From: Actinomycetota bacterium
GTDB lineage: Bacteria; Actinomycetota; Actinomycetes; Actinomycetales; Microbacteriaceae
Length of the DNA: 64,000 bases
Reading direction: 5' to 3'
NCBI GenBank assembly: GCA_051751085.1
Contig: JBNJKM010000001.1
Span: forward strand, 135,314 to 199,313
Part shown: positions 9,326 to 46,842 of the stretch, one piece after another
Numbering within the stretch: the stretch's first letter is position 1
How the letters are laid out: every line of letters begins with the position of its first letter
Translations under genes and position numbers: made by a program
The notes under the pieces: model-generated
The model's input: the letters and a program-made list of their open reading frames with translations, nothing else
Databases searched by the model: none
What the model was told of the DNA's origin: nothing

Positions 9326-9358
9326 GCAGACGCCGTCCCTCTTCGGGGCGGCGTTTGT
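9326..9358 (+). terminator. Intrinsic terminator after lsr2
   Basis: Stem GCAGACGCCGTCCC / GGGGCGGCGTTTGT with a short loop. Confidence 0.7.
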
Positions 9359-19214: not shown

Positions 19215-20222
19215 GTGACGGAGACCACTGGCAACGAGCCGACCGGCACCGCGCCCGACCGCAGCGGCCCCGTCGGCCCGGTCGACGCATCCGTCGTGCC
19301 CCGCTACGCGGGCATCGCGACCTTCGCGCGGCTGCCGCGCATCGAGGACGTGCCGCGCGCCGACGTCGCCGTCGTGGGCGTGCCGTTCGACACGGGCGTC
19401 AGCTACCGGCCGGGCACGCGCTTCGGGCCGTCGCACGTGCGCGAGTCGTCGCGGCTGCTGCGGCCGTACAACCCCGCGCAGGACGTGTCGCCGTTCGCGG
19501 TCGCGCAGGTCGTCGACGCGGGCGACTTCCCCGTGAACCCGTTCGACATCCAGGAGGCGGTGCTCGAGGTCGAGCGCGCCGCGACCGAGCTCGGCGAGCG
19601 GGCGACGCGGATCGTGACGATCGGCGGCGACCACACGATCGCGCTGCCGCTGCTGCGCGCGGTCGCGAAGCAGCACGGGCCGGTCGCGGTGCTGCACTTC
19701 GACGCGCACCTCGACACCTGGGACACCTACTTCGGTGCGCCCGTCACGCACGGCACGCCCTTCCGGCGCGCGAGCGAGGAGGGGCTCATCGACCTCACCG
19801 CGAGCTGCCACGTGGGCACGCGCGGGCCGCTGTACTCGAAGCAGGACCTCGAGGACGACGAGCGGCTCGGCTTCTCGATCGTCTCGAGCGAGTACGTCGA
19901 GGAGCGCGGCGCCGAGGCGGCGATCCAGCGGATGCGCGACCGCATCGGCGACAAGCCGCTCTACATCTCGGTCGACATCGACGTGCTCGACCCCGCGCAC
20001 GCGCCCGGCACGGGCACGCCTGAAGCTGGTGGGCTGACGAGCCGCGAGCTGCTGCGGATGCTGCGGAGCCTGGGCGACAAGCACATCGTGGGCGCCGACG
20101 TCGTCGAGGTGTCGCCCGCGTACGACCACGCGCAGATGACCGGCATCGCTGCGAGCCACGTCGTCTACGAGCTCGTGACGCTGCTGGCGGCGCAGGCGGG
20201 GCGGATGCGCGAGGCCGAGTAG
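19215..20222 (+). CDS. speB: Agmatinase / guanidinobutyrase (ureohydrolase)
   Basis: GGDHT, HFDAHLD, SHGT-like [21 protein letters not shown]; exact substrate cannot be told from sequence. Confidence 0.88.
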
Positions 20223-20262
20223 CCCTCCTCCGCTGATCGAGCCGCACGCGTCGACCCGCCGC

Positions 20263-20453
20263 TGGTCGAGCCGCACGCGCCGCAGGCGCGCGCGAGTCGA
20301 GACCACGCCGGTGGTCGAGCCGCACGCGCCGCAGGCGCGCGCGAGTCGAGACCACGCCGCTGGTCGAGCCGCACGCGCCGCAGGCGCGCGCGAGTCGAGA
20401 CCACGCCGCTGGTCGAGCCGCACGCGCCGCAGGCGCGCGCGAGTCGAGACCAC
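20263..20453. repeat. Tandem array of four 49-bp REP family 1 units
   Basis: Unit TGGTCGAGCCGCACGCGCCGCAGGCGCGCGCGAGTCGAGACCACGCCGC at 20263, 20312, 20361 and 20410; partial copy at about 20230-20250. Confidence 0.95.
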
Positions 20454-20485
20454 TCGCCGACGGCCGCACTCCCGACGGCGTCACC

Positions 20486-21595
20486 TCAGACGGCGACCTC
20501 CACCGAGACCGACAACACCTGCCCGCGGAAGGCGGCGACCCGCGCGACCTGCTCCTCGAGCGCGGTCGTCGGCGGCGTGCCGGCCTCGGCGAACCACGAG
20601 ACGGCGAGAGCGTCGCGGCTCATGCGCCACGTGCCGGCGACCACGCCACCCGCGACGACGAGGTTCGCGCCGTTCGAGACGAGCGAGCGCCGCGCGGGCG
20701 GCACGACTCGCGAGTCGGCCGTGCCCGGGCCCAGCACCCACGGGTCGAACGCGGGCAGCAGCACCACGGCATCCGACGGCTCGGCGGCCTCGAGCTCGGC
20801 GACGTCGGCGGTCCGCAGGAGCAGCTCCTCACCATCCACCTCGACGGTCGCCACCTCGCCGCCGAGATCGCGCAGCCACCCCTCGAGGCGCCGGCGCGGC
20901 ACGCCGAGCCCCTCCGTCAGCCAGTAGCCGAGGTTGGCCGCGGTCGCCGGACCGTACGCCTCGAGGTAGAGGAGGCACGCGCGCCGACCCGCCTCGTCGA
21001 GTTCCGGCAGGCCTGGCCAGCGAGGGTCGCCCTCGAGCAGTCGGAACGTCGACTGCCCGTCGCGTGCCGGCCCGAAGCAGATGTCGCCCCACCAGTGCAG
21101 CGGCTTGAAGAGCGCATCGGCGCCGCTGCCGGAGGTCGCGGCCTCGGCGAGGTGCCGCAGCGCGGGGATGCGCGCGAGGTGCGCGCCCACCTCCGATCGC
21201 GTCATCGGGCCGGTGCGCAGCGCATCCCGCACGGCATCGCGCAGCGGCGCCCAGTCGTCGATGGCGAAGCCGCCCTGCCGCTGCCAGCGAGCCGTCTCCC
21301 AGACGCGCGTCGCGGTGCGCGCGGCGAGCAGCACGGAGGCCGCGTCGTGCGTGAAGACGTACGAGCCGCCGCGGAACGCGTAGCTGCGCACCAGCTCGCC
21401 GTCGTCGAGCGCTCGCTCGAGGGCGCCCGGCCGCGGGTCGGTCTGCCGCATGGCGACGGAGAGCTCCGCCGACTCCATGAGCCAGCCGCGCACCGCGACG
21501 ACGCGGCGGATGGTGTCGGTCGCGTCGGCGGGCAGGGCAGGGTCGAGGCCGTGGCGGCGCAGCCGCCAGCCGAGCGCCTGCGCTCCGTCGATCAC
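20486..21595 (-). CDS. Winged-helix HTH_42 (AlkZ/YcaQ-like) DNA glycosylase family protein, divergent
   Basis: Overall layout, YL.AYGPAT...L.YW, LLPAFDPWVLG, GGVVAGTW; the catalytic QxQ position reads RGW. Confidence 0.75.
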   Translation of the reverse strand: MIDGAQALGWRLRRHGLDPALPADATDTIRRVVAVRGWLMESAELSVAMRQTDPRPGALERALDDGELVRSYAFRGGSYVFTHDAASVLLAARTATRVWETARWQRQGGFAIDDWAPLRDAVRDALRTGPMTRSEVGAHLARIPALRHLAEAATSGSGADALFKPLHWWGDICFGPARDGQSTFRLLEGDPRWPGLPELDEAGRRACLLYLEAYGPATAANLGYWLTEGLGVPRRRLEGWLRDLGGEVATVEVDGEELLLRTADVAELEAAEPSDAVVLLPAFDPWVLGPGTADSRVVPPARRSLVSNGANLVVAGGVVAGTWRMSRDALAVSWFAEAGTPPTTALEEQVARVAAFRGQVLSVSVEVAV

Positions 21596-22135: not shown

Positions 22136-25100
22136 TCAGGCGGCGAGCGCCTTCTTCACCCGCTGCAGGCTGACCGGCCCGGAGGTGCCGAGCTGCTGCG
22201 CGAAGAGGCTGACCCGCAGCTCCTCGAGCAGCCAGCGGGCGGTGATGAGCCGCTCGGCCTTCGGCCATCCGTCGGTGCCCGGGACGGCATCCGTCACCGC
22301 TCGCGCGAGCGGCAGCGTGCCGCCCGCCTCGGTGAAGAGCGCGGTCGCCTGCTCGACCTCGGTCATCCAGATGCGGTCGCGGTGCGCGGTCTCGGGGAGG
22401 CGCTTGACGCGGTGCTCGATCGCGCGCACGTAGACCTCGAGCCGCCCGAGCCTGGCGAGGCCCGTGCGGCTGACGAAGCCGTCGAAGACGAGCTGGTCGA
22501 GGTGCGCGCGGGCGTCGGCGAGCGCGGCCATGTGCGCGAGGCTCGCGCCGTCGCGGATCGCGCGGTCGGCGAGCCGGGCGGAGGTGAGGATGCGCGCCAC
22601 CTGCGAGGCGAGCGCGAACAGCCGGTCGACGAGGCCGTCGGCGACGCGGGCCCGCAGCGCCTCGAAGTCGGCGACCGTCGCGGGCGGCGCGGTGCCGAGC
22701 TCGGCGTCGATGATCGCGAGCATGAGGTCGTCGAAGAGGCGGTCGGTCGACGGGTAGGGGCTCGCGCCGAGCGCGAGCTTCTCGGCCGCTGTGAGGTTCG
22801 ACTGCACGTAGGGCCCGGGGCTCGGCACCTGCCGCAGCAGCAGCTGCCGCACCGCCGCGCGCTGGTCGCGCTGCTGCGCCTCGCGCGTCGACGCGAGCCG
22901 GATGCTGACCGTCGCCTTCCCGCCCTTGCCCGCGCTCGTGATCGCGTAGCCCGGGTAGGCCCGCACCGTGTTGCCGCCCTGCCGCACGTCGATGTGCTCG
23001 GGCAGCTCGACGTCGAAGCCCGTCACCTCGTCGCGCTCCAGGTCGCTCGTCACCTTGACCGCGGCCTTCGCGACCTGCGCGGTCGCCTGCTGGCCGAAGC
23101 GACGCTTGAGCGCCTCGAGGTCCTTGTCGGCCCCGAGTCGGCGGCCGCGGCCGTCCTCGACGGCGAAGGTGGGCTTGAGGTGCTCGGGGATGCGGTGCCA
23201 GTCGACATCGCTCGCGGCCGCCTGCACGTAGGCGGTGCGGGAGATGCGCGCGGCCAGCACCTCTGCGATGGAGGCGGGCCGGTCGCTGCCCTTGCCGGCC
23301 GCGGCGGGCTCGGACGGCAGGTCGGCGAGCATGCCGCGCGCCCAGTCGGCTGCCGGGACGACGTGCTTGCGCACGTGCTTCGGCAGGCTCTTGATCATCG
23401 CGGTCAGCAGCTCCTCCCGCATGCCGGGCACGAGCCAGTCGAAGCCCTCCGGCGTAATGCGCGGCAGCACCGCGAGCGGCACGTGCACGGTGACGCCGTC
23501 GTCCGTGGCGCCCGGCTCGAACCGGTAGCTGAGCCGCAGCCGCTGCTCGCCCTGCTGCCACTTCGTCGGGAACGCCTCCTGGTCGACGCGGGCGTCCTCG
23601 CCGGTGAGGTCCTCGCGCGTCATCGTCAGCAGCTCGGGACGGGTCTTCCGCTCCTCGCGCCACCACCCCTCGAAGCTGCGGGTGGAGGCCACGTCGGCGG
23701 GGATGCGCGCGTCGAAGAAGTCGAAGACGGCCTCGTCGCCGACCAGCAGGTCGCGGCGGCGCTGGCGCTCCTCGAGCCGCTCGATCTCGCGGCGCAGCTC
23801 CTTGTTCTTGCGGTCGAAGTCCTGCGGGCTGTCCCACTCGCCGTCGACGAGCGCGTGCCGGATGAACAGCTCGCGCGCGTGCTCGGGGTCGATGCGCGAG
23901 AACTGCACGCGCCGCCGCTCGACGATCGTGACGCCGAAGAGCGTCACCTTCTCGAAGGCGACGACGGCGCCCTGCTTGCGCTCCCAGTGGGGCTCCGAGA
24001 CCTGGCGCTTCGCGAGGTCGCCCGCGAGCGGCTCGGCCCACGCGAGGTCGATGGATGCGACGTTGCGGGCGAAGAGCCGGCTCGTCTCGACGAGCTCGGC
24101 GGCCATCACGGAGCGCGGCGGCTTCTTGGCGAGGGCCGAACCGGGGAAGATCTGGAACCGCGCGCCACGCGCGCCGAGGTACTCGGGCCGCACGCGCATC
24201 CGCCGCTTGTCGCCCTTGTCGCCGGGCCGCGACTGCTGCGGCTTCTGCGTCTCGTCGAGCGTGCCGATGCGGCCGAGGAGGCCGGAGAGGAGCGCCTTGT
24301 GGACGGCGTCGGCGTCGACGGAGGCGGCGAGCGAGCCGGGGGCCCCGTCCGCTGGTCGAGCCGCCTCCTCCGCTGGTCGAGCCGCACGCGCCGCACCGTC
24401 CGCTGGTCGAGCCGCACGCGCCGCAGGCGCGCGCGAGTCGAGACCACTGCTGTCGTCTCGAGACGCGCCTTCGGTGCTCCTCGACGAGCGACGCTCCGGC
24501 TTCAGCCCCATCGCCCGGGTCAGCTGCCGCACGACGTCCTGCCACTCGCGCACGCGCAGGAACGACAGGTGCTCCGCCTTGCACGCCTTCCTGAACTGGT
24601 TGCCCGAGAGCGCCGCCTGCTGCGCCTGCAGGTGCCGCCAGAGCGCGAGCAGCGTGATGAAGTCGCTCGTCGGGTCGGTGAAGCGCGCGTGCGAGCGGTC
24701 GGCCTCCTCGCGCCGCTCGAGCGGACGCTCCCGGGGGTCCTGGATCGTCAGGCCGGCGACGATCGCGATGACCTCGTGGGCGACGTCCGCGTCCCGGCCG
24801 GCCAACGCCATCCGCCCGAACCTCGGGTCGACGGGCAGGCGCGCGAGCTCGCGCCCGATCCTCGTGATGTCGCCCTTCGCCGAGATGGCGCCGAGCTCGC
24901 GCAGCAGGTCGTGGCCGTCCTTGATGCCGCGCGGGTCGGGCGGCTGGAGGAACGGGAACTCCTCGAGCGGACCGAGCCCGAGCGACGCGGCCTGCAGGAT
25001 GACGGCAGCAAGATTCGTGCGGAGGATCTCGGGGTCGGTGAACGCGGGGCGCTTGTCGAAGTCGTCCTCGGCGTAGAGGCGGATCGCGATGCCCGGCGCG

Positions 25101-26155
25101 ACGCGGCCCGCGCGGCCCGAGCGCTGGTTGGCGCTCGCCTGGCTGATCGCCTCGATCGGCAGCCGCTGCACCTTGCTGCGCGCGGAGTAGCGCGAGATGC
25201 GGGCGGTCCCCGTGTCGATGACGTGACGGATGCCCGGCACGGTCAGGCTCGTCTCGGCGACGTTCGTGGCGAGCACGACACGACGACGGATGCCGGGGCG
25301 GCTCGAGCGCTCGAAGACGCGGTGCTGGTCGGCGGCGCTCAGGCGGCCGTAGAGGGGGAGGATCACGGTGGTCGGGCCGAGCTTGCCCTGCAGCTGGTCC
25401 TGCGCGTCGCGGATGTCGGCCTCGCTGGGGAGGAAGACGAGCACGTCGCCTGCGTCGTCGCGGGCGATCTCCTGCAGCGCCGACTCGATGCCGTCGATCG
25501 GGTCGAGGTCGGCGGCGGGCTCGTCCGCACTGCGTCCATCGAGCTCGGCATCGTCGTCCTCATCCATCGCCTCGGAGACGAGCGGGCGGTAGCGGACGTC
25601 GACCGGGAAGGTGCGGCCGGAGACCTCGATGATCGGGGCGCCGCCGAAGTGCCGGCTGAACGACTCGGGATCGATCGTCGCGCTCGTGACGATCACCTTG
25701 AGGTCGGGGCGGCGGGGGAGCAGCCGCTGCAGGTAGCCGACGAGGAAGTCGATCGTGAGGCTGCGCTCGTGCGCCTCGTCGATGATGATCGTGTCGTACT
25801 GCTTGAGGTCGCGATCGCGGTGCATCTCGGCGAGCAGGATGCCGTCGGTCATCACCTTGATCTGCGTCGCCGCCGACACCTGGTCGGTGAAGCGCACCTT
25901 GTAGCCGACGATGCCGCCGAGCTCCTCGCCGAGCTCCTCGGCGATGCGCTCGGCGATCGTGCGGGCGGCGAGCCGGCGCGGCTGCGTGTGGCCGATGCTG
26001 GTGCGGCCGAGCTCGAGGCACATCTTCGGCAGCTGCGTCGTCTTGCCCGAGCCCGTGGCGCCGGCGACGATCACCACCTGGTGGTCCCGGATCGCCGCCA
26101 TGATCTCGTCGCGCGCCGCGCTGACGGGCAGATCAGCCGGGTACTCGATGCGCAT
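22136..26155 (-). CDS. hrpA: ATP-dependent RNA helicase HrpA with an internal REP-derived insertion
   Basis: GATGSGKTTQLPK, DEAHERS, SAT, LATNVAETSLT, QRSGRAGR, C-terminal WLLEELRVSLFAQ; start MRIEYP at 26155. Confidence 0.96.
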   Translation of the reverse strand: MRIEYPADLPVSAARDEIMAAIRDHQVVIVAGATGSGKTTQLPKMCLELGRTSIGHTQPRRLAARTIAERIAEELGEELGGIVGYKVRFTDQVSAATQIKVMTDGILLAEMHRDRDLKQYDTIIIDEAHERSLTIDFLVGYLQRLLPRRPDLKVIVTSATIDPESFSRHFGGAPIIEVSGRTFPVDVRYRPLVSEAMDEDDDAELDGRSADEPAADLDPIDGIESALQEIARDDAGDVLVFLPSEADIRDAQDQLQGKLGPTTVILPLYGRLSAADQHRVFERSSRPGIRRRVVLATNVAETSLTVPGIRHVIDTGTARISRYSARSKVQRLPIEAISQASANQRSGRAGRVAPGIAIRLYAEDDFDKRPAFTDPEILRTNLAAVILQAASLGLGPLEEFPFLQPPDPRGIKDGHDLLRELGAISAKGDITRIGRELARLPVDPRFGRMALAGRDADVAHEVIAIVAGLTIQDPRERPLERREEADRSHARFTDPTSDFITLLALWRHLQAQQAALSGNQFRKACKAEHLSFLRVREWQDVVRQLTRAMGLKPERRSSRSTEGASRDDSSGLDSRAPAARAARPADGAARAARPAEEAARPADGAPGSLAASVDADAVHKALLSGLLGRIGTLDETQKPQQSRPGDKGDKRRMRVRPEYLGARGARFQIFPGSALAKKPPRSVMAAELVETSRLFARNVASIDLAWAEPLAGDLAKRQVSEPHWERKQGAVVAFEKVTLFGVTIVERRRVQFSRIDPEHARELFIRHALVDGEWDSPQDFDRKNKELRREIERLEERQRRRDLLVGDEAVFDFFDARIPADVASTRSFEGWWREERKTRPELLTMTREDLTGEDARVDQEAFPTKWQQGEQRLRLSYRFEPGATDDGVTVHVPLAVLPRITPEGFDWLVPGMREELLTAMIKSLPKHVRKHVVPAADWARGMLADLPSEPAAAGKGSDRPASIAEVLAARISRTAYVQAAASDVDWHRIPEHLKPTFAVEDGRGRRLGADKDLEALKRRFGQQATAQVAKAAVKVTSDLERDEVTGFDVELPEHIDVRQGGNTVRAYPGYAITSAGKGGKATVSIRLASTREAQQRDQRAAVRQLLLRQVPSPGPYVQSNLTAAEKLALGASPYPSTDRLFDDLMLAIIDAELGTAPPATVADFEALRARVADGLVDRLFALASQVARILTSARLADRAIRDGASLAHMAALADARAHLDQLVFDGFVSRTGLARLGRLEVYVRAIEHRVKRLPETAHRDRIWMTEVEQATALFTEAGGTLPLARAVTDAVPGTDGWPKAERLITARWLLEELRVSLFAQQLGTSGPVSLQRVKKALAA
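24349..24490. repeat. REP family 1 cluster inside the hrpA coding sequence
   Basis: 24404-24447 is identical to the first 44 nt of the 49-bp array unit; two truncated copies and an inverted partner adjoin it; reading frame preserved. Confidence 0.93.
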
Positions 26156-26244
26156 CCGACCATTCTCCCGTGCCGGGCTGTGCCTGCGCACCGCGCCCAC
26201 CGCATCCGCCGTCGCCCGTCCCCGTCGCCCCCCCCGCTCTCGAT

Positions 26245-26306
26245 GCGGACCCCAGTTCGGCAGCCGGACCCGCGATCGCGGGTCCGTCTGCCGAACTCGG
26301 GTCCGG
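26245..26306. repeat. 62-bp four-box palindrome (family 2), copy A
   Basis: GCGGACCC-N12-CGGACCC-GCGATCGC-GGGTCCG-N12-GGGTCCGG. Confidence 0.95.
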
Positions 26307-26376
26307 CGGGCGGGAGTCTCCACAGCTCCGCGGATGCAACGGGTCGCGTGGCGCGCGCCCGTGCGACAGTGCCGAC

Positions 26377-27327
26377 ATGGCCGTGGGGAAGCAGCACGAT
26401 GCACCCGCTCTGCATCGGGCGAGGAGCCTCGCCGGCGCCGATGTCGGGGTCCAGCCCGAACGAGAGCCGTCGCTCGCGCGGGTGCGCTACGGCGTCTATG
26501 CCGATGCGGCGGAGCTCGAGGTTGCGAGCCGCGAGGCCTCGTACCTCGCGCTCGTGCGGTCGGTCGCGATCACGCGCGACCAGCCCGTATTCGCGCGTGA
26601 GTCAGCGCTCGCCGTCCACGGCATCCCCTTCGGGCTCGCACCTGATGCCGTGTTCACCATCGGCGACGAGCGCACCGCCAGGAAGAAGGCGGGCGTGATC
26701 CACGCCGTCACGGTGCTCGATCCGATCGACGTCACGACCGTCGGCGAGCTGCTCGTCTGCACGGTGGAGCATGCGCTCGCAGACGTTGCTCGGCGGCGCG
26801 AGGTGGTCGTGGCAGTCGCCGCTCTCGACTGGGCGCTGCGGAATGGGCTCGCCAGCAAGGACGGCGTGCTCGAGGCGCTCGGTCGGCAGGGAAAGCGAGG
26901 GCGGGCCGCCGCGGAGTGGGCGATCGCGTTCGCCGACGCGGCCGCCGAATCGGTCGGTGAGTCCTACAGTCGCGTGCGGCTGCATCAGCTCGGCTTCGCG
27001 ATCCCCGAGCTGCAGGCGCTCGTCGTCGGCAGGAGCGGCAAGGAGTATCGCGTCGATGCGAAGTGGTCGTTCAGCGATCGGCGCCCGCTGTTCGGTGAGT
27101 TCGACGGCATGCAGAAGTACGGCGAGCTTGCGAACCGCGCCGGGAAGTCCGGTGCGGCGGCGCTGGCGCAGGAGAAGGCGCGCGAGGACGACATACGTTT
27201 CCGAGGCGACGTCATGCGCTGGGTCTGGGACGAGATGATCCAGCCACGGCGCTTCGAGCGGCTGCTGCTGGCGCACCGCGTGCCGCGGGTACGCGCTGCG
27301 CTGCCGGAAGCGCTCCTCCGCGGCTGA
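26377..27327 (+). CDS. Orphan AbiEi-like wHTH plus DUF559/Vsr-like putative nuclease domain protein
   Basis: RVRYGVY, ESALAVHG, TVEHALADVAR, AESVGES.SRVRL..LGF.IPELQ, RVD...GEFDG.QKY...EK.RED...RW.W; family assignment from recalled motifs. Confidence 0.75.
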   Translation: MAVGKQHDAPALHRARSLAGADVGVQPEREPSLARVRYGVYADAAELEVASREASYLALVRSVAITRDQPVFARESALAVHGIPFGLAPDAVFTIGDERTARKKAGVIHAVTVLDPIDVTTVGELLVCTVEHALADVARRREVVVAVAALDWALRNGLASKDGVLEALGRQGKRGRAAAEWAIAFADAAAESVGESYSRVRLHQLGFAIPELQALVVGRSGKEYRVDAKWSFSDRRPLFGEFDGMQKYGELANRAGKSGAAALAQEKAREDDIRFRGDVMRWVWDEMIQPRRFERLLLAHRVPRVRAALPEALLRG

Positions 27328-27348
27328 CCGACAGCTCCCGCTCAGGAA

Positions 27349-27410
27349 GCGGACCCGAGTTCGGCATGCGGACCCGCGATCCCAGGTCCGGCTGCCGAAC
27401 TGGGGTCCGC
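27349..27410. repeat. 62-bp four-box palindrome, copy B (inverted relative to A)
   Basis: GCGGACCC GAGTTCGGCATG CGGACCC GCGATCCC AGGTCCG GCTGCCGAACTG GGGTCCGC. Confidence 0.95.
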
Positions 27411-27489: not shown

Positions 27490-27960
27490 ATGGACATCCA
27501 CGACAACGGGCCCAAGCCGAACACGTTCGACATCGAGACCGCCACCACCGAGAACGACGCCTACCGCCGCGTCGCCTGGACGGGCAAGCACCTCCAGGTG
27601 ACCCTCATGTCGATCGAGCCGGGCAAGGCGATCGGCCTCGAGGTGCACCACGGCACCGACCAGTTCCTGCGCATCGACCAGGGCAAGGGCGTCGCGAAGA
27701 TGGGCCCGGAGAAGGACGACCTGCAGGAGCACGAGGTCGAGGACGGCTGGAGCATCCAGGTGCCCGCCGGCACGTGGCACGACGTCGAGAACACCGGCGA
27801 CGAGCCGCTCCGCCTCTACACGATCTACGCGCCCACGCACCACGCGAAGGGCATCGTGCAGCAGACGGCCGAGAAGGCCGAGGAGGACGAGGAGGCCGGC
27901 CGCGACGAGCCGCCGAAGTGGGTCGAAGAGGTCGACGAGAAGGGCGAGGAGAGCGCCTGA
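27490..27960 (+). CDS. Cupin domain protein
   Basis: LQVTLMSI.PG..IGLEVH..TDQFLRI..G, VPAGTWHDV.NTG...L.LYTIYAP. Confidence 0.88.
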   Translation: MDIHDNGPKPNTFDIETATTENDAYRRVAWTGKHLQVTLMSIEPGKAIGLEVHHGTDQFLRIDQGKGVAKMGPEKDDLQEHEVEDGWSIQVPAGTWHDVENTGDEPLRLYTIYAPTHHAKGIVQQTAEKAEEDEEAGRDEPPKWVEEVDEKGEESA

Positions 27961-45905: not shown

Positions 45906-45921
45906 CCGCGACCGCGCGCAT

Positions 45922-45983
45922 CCGGACCCGAGTCCGGCAGCCGGACCCCCGATCGGGGGTCCGCCTGCCGAGCTCGGGTCCGT
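45922..45983. repeat. 62-bp four-box palindrome, copy C
   Basis: CCGGACCC GAGTCCGGCAGC CGGACCC CCGATCGG GGGTCCG CCTGCCGAGCTC GGGTCCGT. Confidence 0.93.
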
Positions 45984-45991
45984 TCGCGTTC

Positions 45992-46053
45992 GCGGACCCG
46001 TTCCACCGGGGCGGACCCGGTGCACCGGGTCCCGGATGGTGGAGCGGGTCCGC
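45992..46053. repeat. 62-bp four-box palindrome, divergent copy E
   Basis: GCGGACCC GTTCCACCGGGG CGGACCC GGTGCACC GGGTCCC GGATGGTGGAGC GGGTCCGC; same boxes and length, different but still partly self-pairing spacers. Confidence 0.85.
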
Positions 46054-46083: not shown

Positions 46084-46743
46084 TCAGCGCAGCAGCGCCG
46101 CGATCCGCGGGCCGAGCGCCGCCGCGACCCGCTCCGGGTCGCGATCGCCGCCCGCGACCAGGAACGAGTGGTCGCCGCCCGCGACCCAGTCGACCCGCGC
46201 ATCCGGCAGCCGGGCGACGACGTGGTCGAGCGCGTCCCCCGACTGGAACGGGTCGTTCGTGCCCTGCAGGAACCGCTGCGGCAGGGCGATGTCGCCGAGG
46301 TGGGCGTCGCGGATGCGCTCCGGCCGGCCGGGCGGGTGCAGCGGGTAGCCGAGGTAGACGAGGCCCGCCGCCGGCATGCCGGCCGTGACCGCGGCTGCGG
46401 CCATCCGCCCGCCGAGGGACTTGCCGCCGGCCCAGGGCGGGTGCGGCAGGAGCCCTTCGGCGGCGGCCATCACGGCGAGCCACGTCGCGATCGCGCTCGG
46501 CTCGCGCTCCGGCTGTCGCTTGCCGGCCTGCGCGTTCGGGAAGCTCGCGCGCAGCACCGCGATGCCCTCGCCGACGAGTCCGCGCGCGACGCCCGCCATC
46601 CACGGATGCGTCGCCGAGCCGCCCGCGCCGTGCAGCAGCACGATGCTCGCCCACGCGTCGGCGGGCACCTCGACGATCGCGTCGACGTGCGGCACCGTCG
46701 GGTGCTCGATCGCGACGGGCACGACGCGGTGGGAGGCATCCAT
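46084..46743 (-). CDS. Alpha/beta hydrolase (KANL3/Tex30-like)
   Basis: HGAGG, GGKSLGGRMA nucleophile elbow, LGYPLHPPG, LQGTNDPF, GGDHSF. Confidence 0.9.
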   Translation of the reverse strand: MDASHRVVPVAIEHPTVPHVDAIVEVPADAWASIVLLHGAGGSATHPWMAGVARGLVGEGIAVLRASFPNAQAGKRQPEREPSAIATWLAVMAAAEGLLPHPPWAGGKSLGGRMAAAAVTAGMPAAGLVYLGYPLHPPGRPERIRDAHLGDIALPQRFLQGTNDPFQSGDALDHVVARLPDARVDWVAGGDHSFLVAGGDRDPERVAAALGPRIAALLR

Positions 46744-46780
46744 CCCTCGAGCTTCCCACGCGGCGCGCCGGCCGCCTCGT

Positions 46781-46842
46781 GCGGACCCGAGTTCGGCAGA
46801 CGGACCCGCGATCGCGGGTCCGCGTGCCGAGCTCGGGTCCGC
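46781..46842. repeat. 62-bp four-box palindrome, copy D
   Basis: GCGGACCC GAGTTCGGCAGA CGGACCC GCGATCGC GGGTCCG CGTGCCGAGCTC GGGTCCGC. Confidence 0.95.

Follow-up and report, generated by a model that had tools for sequence, protein, structure and literature searches.

In the 64,000-nt stretch of an Agrococcus genome analysed here (the window), a solitary gene coding for a 316-aa AbiEi-like protein (26377-27327, + strand) is found between two copies, A (26245-26306) and B (27349-27410), of a 62-bp palindrome that is dispersed in the genome (the palindromes are given without strand). We show that a single-copy gene which does not move is specifically paired with a family of palindromes that are dispersed and turn over, and that this pairing has been stable in evolution. 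A paralogue of the gene is paired in the same manner with palindromes of another box, and distant homologues show echoes of the arrangement. The gene itself is inherited vertically. The pairing is probably a partnership in the manner of REPIN/RAYT, in which a repeat has an enzyme of its own, here one unrelated to RAYT, and in which the palindrome upstream of the gene doubles as an AbiEi-type operator. No description of this gene-palindrome pairing was found in the literature searched, and full-text searches returned no paper in which AbiEi is treated together with DUF559, or actinobacterial endonucleases together with REP elements. The source genome (G000; 2.72 Mb, 72% GC, family Microbacteriaceae), in which the window spans C1:135314-199313, was compared within a set of 34 Agrococcus genomes; the genomes of relatives carry G0xx labels.

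Association of the gene with a palindrome family

An earlier note on this DNA had placed a single 316-aa gene between two four-box palindromes, and a direct check of the sequence bore out the coordinates and geometry that it gave. Palindromes A and B are composed of an outer box GCGGACCC, 12 nt, an inner box CGGACCC, an 8-nt core GCGATCGC and the mirror half. The 62-bp element is an inverted pair of ~28-bp half-sites, each formed by GACCC, 14 nt, GACCC and half of the core. In the window this half-unit pattern is found nine times, where shuffling predicts 0.17 occurrences. A genome-wide count with the pattern GACC-N15-GACC-N10-GGTC-N15-GGTC, allowing at most one mismatch, yielded 23 copies of two types that have their boxes in common and are told apart by spacer and core: type 1 (spacer AGTTCGGCAG, core GCGATCGC; seven copies, A and B among them) and type 2 (spacer TTCCACC, core GGTGCACC; 16 copies). 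The unit boundaries fall between sCG and GACCC at one end and between GGGTC and CGs at the other. Three further copies had been reported 19 kb away from the gene, and they were found at 45921-45982, 45992-46053 and 46781-46842. It had also been proposed that B is the inverse of A. This holds for the pair in the window (over the 56-nt core, four mismatches in inverted and seven in direct orientation; 93% complementary) and not as a general rule, since at 24 other bracketed loci the inverted orientation fits better in 13 cases, the direct one in seven, and four are ties.

The copies are found in divergent, tandem and convergent gaps alike. One copy outside the window (C5:181274-181329) is located within dnaX, where it is in frame in the Pro/Ala-rich linker and encodes ...DRDPAHRAGPGAPGPARSSGS...; the orthologous position is also occupied in G003 and G015. 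Three genes of the genome are individually bracketed by family members, namely the AbiEi-like gene, an Abhydrolase_11 gene and a mycothiol-S-transferase gene. With 23 copies the palindrome is too rare for flanking by chance, simple arithmetic giving an expectation of ~0.007 bracketed genes.

Agrococcus has two lineages of the gene, group 1 (51-63% identical) and the paralogous group 2 (41-47% identical). Group 1 is always encoded between hrpA and a cupin gene. Group 2 occupies a separate locus that is syntenic in 20/20 genomes carrying it. Both flanks are occupied by the box pattern at 16 of the 19 group-1 loci, the other three having one occupied flank, and at 8 of 11 group-2 loci, compared to 0.2% of random 900-bp genome segments (7.4% of these segments have one flank occupied). 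A palindrome finder blind to the box structure identified at least one occupied flank at 14/18 group-1 and 18/20 group-2 loci. Unlike the bracket of the AbiEi-like gene, the one around the hydrolase gene is not kept across species. In elements associated with group 2, the boxes still recur every 19 bp and the inner two are still 10 nt apart, but the boxes themselves are GGTGC, GGTAC or relatives. Box types follow the protein tree, sister proteins carrying sister box variants, and G005 has two group-1 paralogues with different variants. Homologues that are 25-40% identical, from other families of the order, have box arrays of their own with a period of 19-22 bp on one or both flanks (boxes GAGGGCGGGT, CGCACCT, GAGGTCGAG and CCCCGGCG; loci L022, L026 and L043 have arrays on both flanks). 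The ties between homologues and flanking palindromes, and between paralogues and palindromes with boxes of their own, that the earlier note had proposed to look for were recovered. Its suggestion that the gene moves as a unit has to be abandoned: both gene lineages are strictly syntenic and the gene is single-copy.

Gene and repeat family also co-occur across the 34 genomes. Wherever the group-1 gene is intact (20 genomes), there are 7-27 GACC-type elements per genome (median 19). The median is one in the 12 genomes without the gene, two of which reach at least seven (no element in G018, G004, G023, G042 and G048; one in G012, G013, G014 and G044; three in G047). A control with the reversed pattern gave about 0 elements. 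The two genomes having elements without the gene are G011 and G020. At the syntenic site, G011 carries a GNAT-like gene and one remaining palindrome, and the hrpA-cupin gap of G020 (L065, C3:40140-41190) is filled by ~1 kb of foreign, lower-GC DNA with two small open reading frames (ORFs) and no AbiEi-like gene. Replacement of the gene at this site in both genomes points to recent loss, and the foreign DNA in G020 identifies the gap as a site of gene exchange. In G047, a third independent case of gene loss, the site is an empty gap of 194 bp. The group-1 gene of G049 (L060/L063, C8:157827-158774) is interrupted by one in-frame TGA that divides the match in two pieces, and 26 palindromes are nevertheless present in this genome, including both flanking copies. 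The interruption could be a recent inactivation or an assembly error (the genome is 79% complete). Group-2-type elements number 10-25 in G042, G044, G012, G013, G010, G047 and G003. None was found in the source genome and in most others lacking the group-2 gene (co-occurrence p 0.001 for the paralogue).

The distribution of dispersed copies changes between species. Out of 40 sites taken from G017, G007, G003 and G015, whose flanks were mapped onto the source genome, 33 map collinearly; 15 of them are occupied and 18 empty in the source genome. Occupied and empty sites, which the earlier note had suggested looking for in sister strains, thus differ between species. Several differences are clean indels of ~80-110 bp between convergent stop codons (L126 versus C3:275354, L097 versus C5:129013). 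At the hydrolase locus, copy number and subtype at the same position vary among related species, and G003 and G015, which are devoid of the hydrolase gene, have a solo palindrome at the site. Where the group-2 gene was lost, group-2-type remnants are kept at the site in G017, G041, G008 and G048. A GACC-type element is found there instead in the source genome (C2:48257-48312), G015, G045 and G006 (site loci L127-L134), suggesting insertion into, or replacement of, existing palindromes. The nearest neighbour of 58 out of 86 copies is in the same genome, which reveals a genome-specific component. Orthologous copies remain 79% identical while the intergenic DNA around them is not alignable, for which reason these copies are considered old, largely vertical and constrained. 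In G003, G007 and G017, copies seemed by eye to be more frequent close to the gene; the sites in question are shared orthologous ones, and no claim is made from them. A short palindrome pair of the CGCGATATATCGCG type, conserved genus-wide next to the group-2 locus, is also present at C2:48165-48205 of the source genome and at the group-2 loci L016, L032, L038 and L056; it looks like the operator of the neighbouring gene.

The protein and its putative DNA sites

Pfam and NCBIfam scans of the 316-aa protein gave no match, nor did a profile search of PDB sequences. The AbiEi profiles of PADLOC match residues 33-180 (E 1.4e-11; profile positions 65-203 of 216). The AlphaFold model of the full protein is of high confidence, with a predicted local distance difference test (pLDDT) score of 91.7, and its top Foldseek matches are AbiEi (6y8q) and Rv2827c (1zel) with probabilities of 0.99-1.0; several PD-(D/E)XK nucleases are among the weaker matches. 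Residues ~185-316 are predicted to form a PD-(D/E)XK nuclease-fold domain. When the C-terminal 134 residues were modelled alone (pLDDT 84.8), the fold search gave mostly restriction-endonuclease-like folds, including R2 RLE, EndoMS, Bax1, XisH, Card1, TnsA and RecU. In an alignment of 50 homologues that reaches down to 25% identity, E195, D227, E241, D243, G244, K247, Y248, E266, K267 and R269 are invariant, as confirmed on 45 locus-derived sequences. Among the aligned homologues 19 match AbiEi_4 (PF13338), six DUF559 (PF04480) and four REase_MTES_1575 (PF18741). The DUF559/MTES_1575 label relies on these matches of homologues, on the invariant residues and on the weak return of PD-(D/E)XK nucleases by the fold search. 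From profile matches and predicted structures, the gene product is a solitary AbiEi homologue fused to a putative PD-(D/E)XK nuclease-fold domain.

The earlier reading of the protein can be refined accordingly. Of the AbiEi-like winged helix-turn-helix (wHTH) that had been proposed, the homology to AbiEi stands (PADLOC profiles and fold; in the Agrococcus proteins, the middle domain and the RxRxGxY motif of the wing are matched or conserved), and the helices of the helix-turn-helix (HTH) part find no match. The Vsr/DUF559-like carboxyl-terminus that had been proposed is upheld by the invariant residues, the matches of some homologues and the PD-(D/E)XK folds, without extending to a Pfam match of the protein itself or to strong E-values in the fold search. 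That the protein is not an HUH transposase was correct: no Pfam family matches it, and the RAYT/IS200 transposase family (PF01797) is absent in 33/34 Agrococcus genomes, including the source genome, with one borderline match in G049 and positive control genomes. This survey of the genus led us to reject a RAYT acting as a hidden mobiliser. It was equally correct that no AbiEii (DUF1814) toxin gene adjoins the AbiEi-like gene, whose neighbours are hrpA (-) and the cupin gene (+), here and at the syntenic loci. A longer 385-aa ORF starting at 26170 and reading through palindrome A finds no support in the lengths of homologues. A profile search of 1.84 billion representatives places the protein in a family of 5,174 clusters (50% identity) at E<=1e-30, and most of these matches are full-length proteins of ~300-330 aa. 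Family members are usually annotated as "AbiEi antitoxin domain", "DUF559" or "hypothetical".

The elements fold strongly as single-stranded DNA (palindrome A at -33.2 kcal/mol, z -6.7). An apparent excess of complementarity between the arms of the same copy vanishes within subfamilies, where arms of the same and of different copies score 0.79 versus 0.77 in G000, 0.77 versus 0.77 in G017 and 0.65 versus 0.64 in G003, an excess being seen in G015 only. Recognition of a single-stranded hairpin was thus dropped as the favoured mode. Conservation along the element is blockwise, GACCCCTTCCACC being followed by six variable, uncompensated nt and by sGACCCGGTG, a pattern that fits protein contacts. 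Some arrays of distant homologues are direct and not inverted repeats. Absence of arm covariation, blockwise conservation and direct-repeat arrays together fit recognition of ~28-bp half-sites as duplex DNA rather than as a hairpin.

Proposed mechanism, rival explanations and known systems

The following working model is proposed. The 62-bp elements would be the cognate DNA sites of the protein, and each box or half-site would probably be bound by one protomer, in the way that AbiEi and Rv2827c bind their inverted repeats. Palindrome A would be a candidate AbiEi-type operator for autoregulation of the gene, and the dispersed population would be maintained or propagated by the protein. More speculatively, the nuclease domain might cut where the protein is bound, and repair by recombination with other copies might then copy, replace or homogenise elements, preferentially at existing palindromes. 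On a broader scale, we put forward tentatively that Actinobacteria may possess a second class of vertically inherited replicators made of a repeat and an enzyme, the enzyme being unrelated to that of REPIN-RAYT. In this class an AbiEi-PD-(D/E)XK protein would recognise a phased four-box palindrome, use the promoter copy to repress itself, and spread, replace and homogenise the dispersed copies through site-specific cleavage and recombinational copying, and paralogues would run separate repeat families in one genome.

Several observations weigh against a partnership of this kind. Co-occurrence of gene and elements (Fisher p 1e-6) is not corrected for phylogeny, and clade structure confounds it in part. 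Beyond the unit ends there is neither a conserved flank nor a duplication, and no target-site duplication was seen. Orthologous copies are 79% identical, copies within a genome 76% and non-orthologous copies of another genome 73%; orthologous copies are thus slightly more alike than those sharing a genome, which indicates slow turnover and a pattern that is largely vertical. An initial claim of strong concerted evolution or homogenisation, drawn from species-specific variants, was dropped on this account (0.79 orthologous versus 0.76 paralogous) and cut to lineage-specific gains and slow divergence. In G040, of a distant genus, the cognate element is found at the two flanks of the gene only. 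Dispersal, which was quantified in Agrococcus and one distant genome, is therefore not universal, and serving as an operator could be the primary function. Nothing in the protein matches the HTH recognition helices of AbiEi or the initial ~40-64 positions of its profiles, and the model of the protein shows before residue 44 a short helix and a beta wing, nothing more. The E-values of the C-terminal fold matches are also weak (0.03-1).

Part of these observations would suit a pure regulator or architectural protein, an AbiEi-type repressor with operators flanking its own gene and possibly looping the DNA, for which the ~20 other sites are a regulon or structural sites under selection; the nuclease fold would be inactive or serve oligomerisation and nothing would be mobilised. 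AbiEi and Rv2827c do autoregulate through two to four inverted repeats in their promoters (PMC7319586). The position of palindrome A 70 nt upstream of the ATG, the flank-only sites of G040, the conserved blocks with an uncompensated variable block and the conservation of orthologous sites across species all agree with such a role. However, many copies are found where there is no promoter (between convergent stop codons, just past stop codons, in frame in the dnaX linker), whole 62-bp units including spacers and cores are common within subfamilies, which argues for copying and not for convergent sites, clean indels specific to a lineage account for about half of the sites, and catalytic-type residues are invariant in 50 diverse members. 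We consider this explanation unlikely. A self-contained defence or toxin-antitoxin (TA)-like module, in which an AbiEi-derived sensor or regulator controls a nuclease effector and the palindromes are an operator plus unrelated REP-like DNA, draws on the origin of AbiEi in abortive-infection systems (the PADLOC matches), on an architecture like that of wHTH and PD-(D/E)XK enzymes, and on the variability of the hrpA-cupin gap, where G020 has foreign low-GC DNA. Vertical inheritance at one locus in at least 20 species, with a paralogue at another, is unlike defence islands, and the module would leave the co-occurrence of gene and repeats and the paralogue-specific dispersed families unexplained, so that we regard it as improbable.

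The two remaining explanations concern the bracket itself. It could be a coincidence or hot spot, the elements being generic REP-like or terminator sequences handled by host factors and the gene lying in a gap that attracts palindromes. Two unrelated genes, for the hydrolase and mycothiol-S-transferase, are also bracketed in the genome, and elements do form tandem clusters and turn up repeatedly in the same gaps. Against this stand the 0.007 bracketed genes expected by chance, conservation of the bracket in 16/19 species when that of the hydrolase is not kept, a different box family at the locus of the paralogue, the arrays proper to distant homologues and the near absence of the repeat family where the gene is absent; the coincidence is very improbable. 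The palindrome-gene-palindrome unit could also be a mobile element similar to an insertion sequence (IS) or a cassette, with the palindromes as terminal inverted repeats. The inverse orientation of B relative to A in the source genome, clean loss of the gene in some genomes (G047) and the retention of both paralogue-type palindromes without the gene in G041 and G008 all speak for such an element. It is hardly credible given a single-copy gene, strict synteny of both lineages across the genus, an inverse orientation that is not general (13:7:4) and, again, no sign of target-site duplication.

The preferred reading, a partnership of repeat and enzyme, recalls a system known from other bacterial repeats. 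To our knowledge, REP/REPIN-RAYT is the only case described so far of a population of short repeats kept over long times by a domesticated single-copy enzyme. The RAYT gene is found once per genome between repeats of its own family and is inherited vertically, and the REPIN population is present with the gene, dwindles without it and persists over speciation (10.1101/2022.05.22.493013; PMC3116915). The likeness to REPIN-RAYT, or REPtron, extends to a single-copy vertical gene with both flanks occupied by members of a dispersed palindromic family, to intergenic copies in the tens that are often in tandem clusters, to one repeat family per paralogue and to a population that tracks the gene. The system described here differs by its enzyme, an AbiEi-like domain with a predicted PD-(D/E)XK fold instead of an HUH/Y1 transposase (PF01797), by a low copy number (7-27), by a unit in which two 28-bp half-sites, inverted to each other, make up the four boxes and by the lack of compensatory covariation between arms. 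Because the HUH enzyme is absent, it works like a REPtron and is not a member of the REPIN-RAYT family.

The promoter of the AbiEi gene has two inverted repeats of 23 bp to which AbiEi binds, and Rv2827c binds four repeats, one protomer each (PMC7319586). The protein resembles both in sequence and fold and by the inverted pairs of ~23-28 bp repeats just upstream of its gene. It departs from them in having no AbiEii (DUF1814) toxin gene, a nuclease fold in place of the C-terminal antitoxicity domain, unmatched wHTH helices, and sites that are found also past the end of the gene and at ~20 positions elsewhere. Since the toxin partner is absent, this is not an AbiE TA system despite the homology to AbiEi. 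The DUF559, REase_MTES_1575 and Vsr-like PD-(D/E)XK proteins are approached through Pfam matches of aligned homologues, the restriction-endonuclease-like fold and invariant residues of D...ExD...K type. The window protein itself is below Pfam thresholds, and it differs in that its domain is joined to an AbiEi-like module and has a repeat family associated with it. As short palindromic repeats between genes that vary in presence among relatives and form tandem mosaics of subtypes, the elements are also reminiscent of miniature inverted-repeat transposable elements (MITEs) and of BIME-type REP clusters. Unlike MITEs, the family has no parent IS with a DDE transposase, leaves no visible target-site duplication and has an immobile partner gene.

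If the proposed partnership is true, it provides a second case based on a different enzyme fold, which would mean that arrangements of this kind arose at least twice. A very large family of actinobacterial proteins, so far uncharacterised, would gain a function and no longer be read as orphan antitoxins. An explanation would also be at hand for high-GC intergenic palindromes that are seen around accessory genes, at places of gene gain and loss and even in frame in dnaX. The paralogue-specific pairs of box and protein offer a natural series in which to study the specificity of DNA recognition and, if cleavage is shown, a possible source of programmable long-site nucleases.

Other features of the window and genome

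The hrpA helicase gene (22136-26155, - strand), the conserved left neighbour of the AbiEi-like gene, starts at 26155. Palindrome A is located in the divergent gap between the two genes, 90 nt from the hrpA start. Palindrome B is positioned 22 nt past the stop codon of the AbiEi-like gene and 80 nt before the Cupin_2 gene (27490-27960, + strand), the conserved right neighbour. A promoter and terminator scan returned nothing, which is uninformative in DNA of 72% GC.

The Abhydrolase_11 gene (46084-46752, - strand) is unrelated to the AbiEi-like gene. It is an accessory gene present in 17/34 genomes, frameshifted in G041 and G043, and is bracketed by three family copies. The type-1 copy 45921-45982 is found in the convergent gap between the upstream (+) gene and the hydrolase gene, in tandem with the type-2 copy 45992-46053, which has the same boxes with spacer TTCCACC and core GGTGCACC and whose orthologous position is occupied in G016, G017, G049 and others. 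The type-1 copy 46781-46842 is at the opposite side of the hydrolase gene. The bracketed mycothiol-S-transferase (MST/DinB_2) gene is outside the window (C1:20175-20690, minus strand). Its bracket spans C1:20015-20805 and is composed of a tandem of type-1 and type-2 copies past the stop codon and of a type-2 copy before the start.

Two other repeat families were observed. A separate family with a 49-bp unit (...GGTCGAGCCGCACGCGCCGCAGGCGCGCGCGAGTCGAGACCA), present in the window at 20208-20501 and 24349-24495 and also at 9349, 11547, 14276, 52864 and 53806, forms a tandem array and is found within the hrpA reading frame too. Among the palindromic families of the genome, the most numerous has ~40 copies of GTTGAGGGTTTGCGTCCGAGTTG...CAACTCGGACGCAAACCCTCAAC, often arranged as tandem pairs ~70 bp apart, with examples outside the window at C2:290690-290892, C5:53799-53927 and C12:13606-13735.

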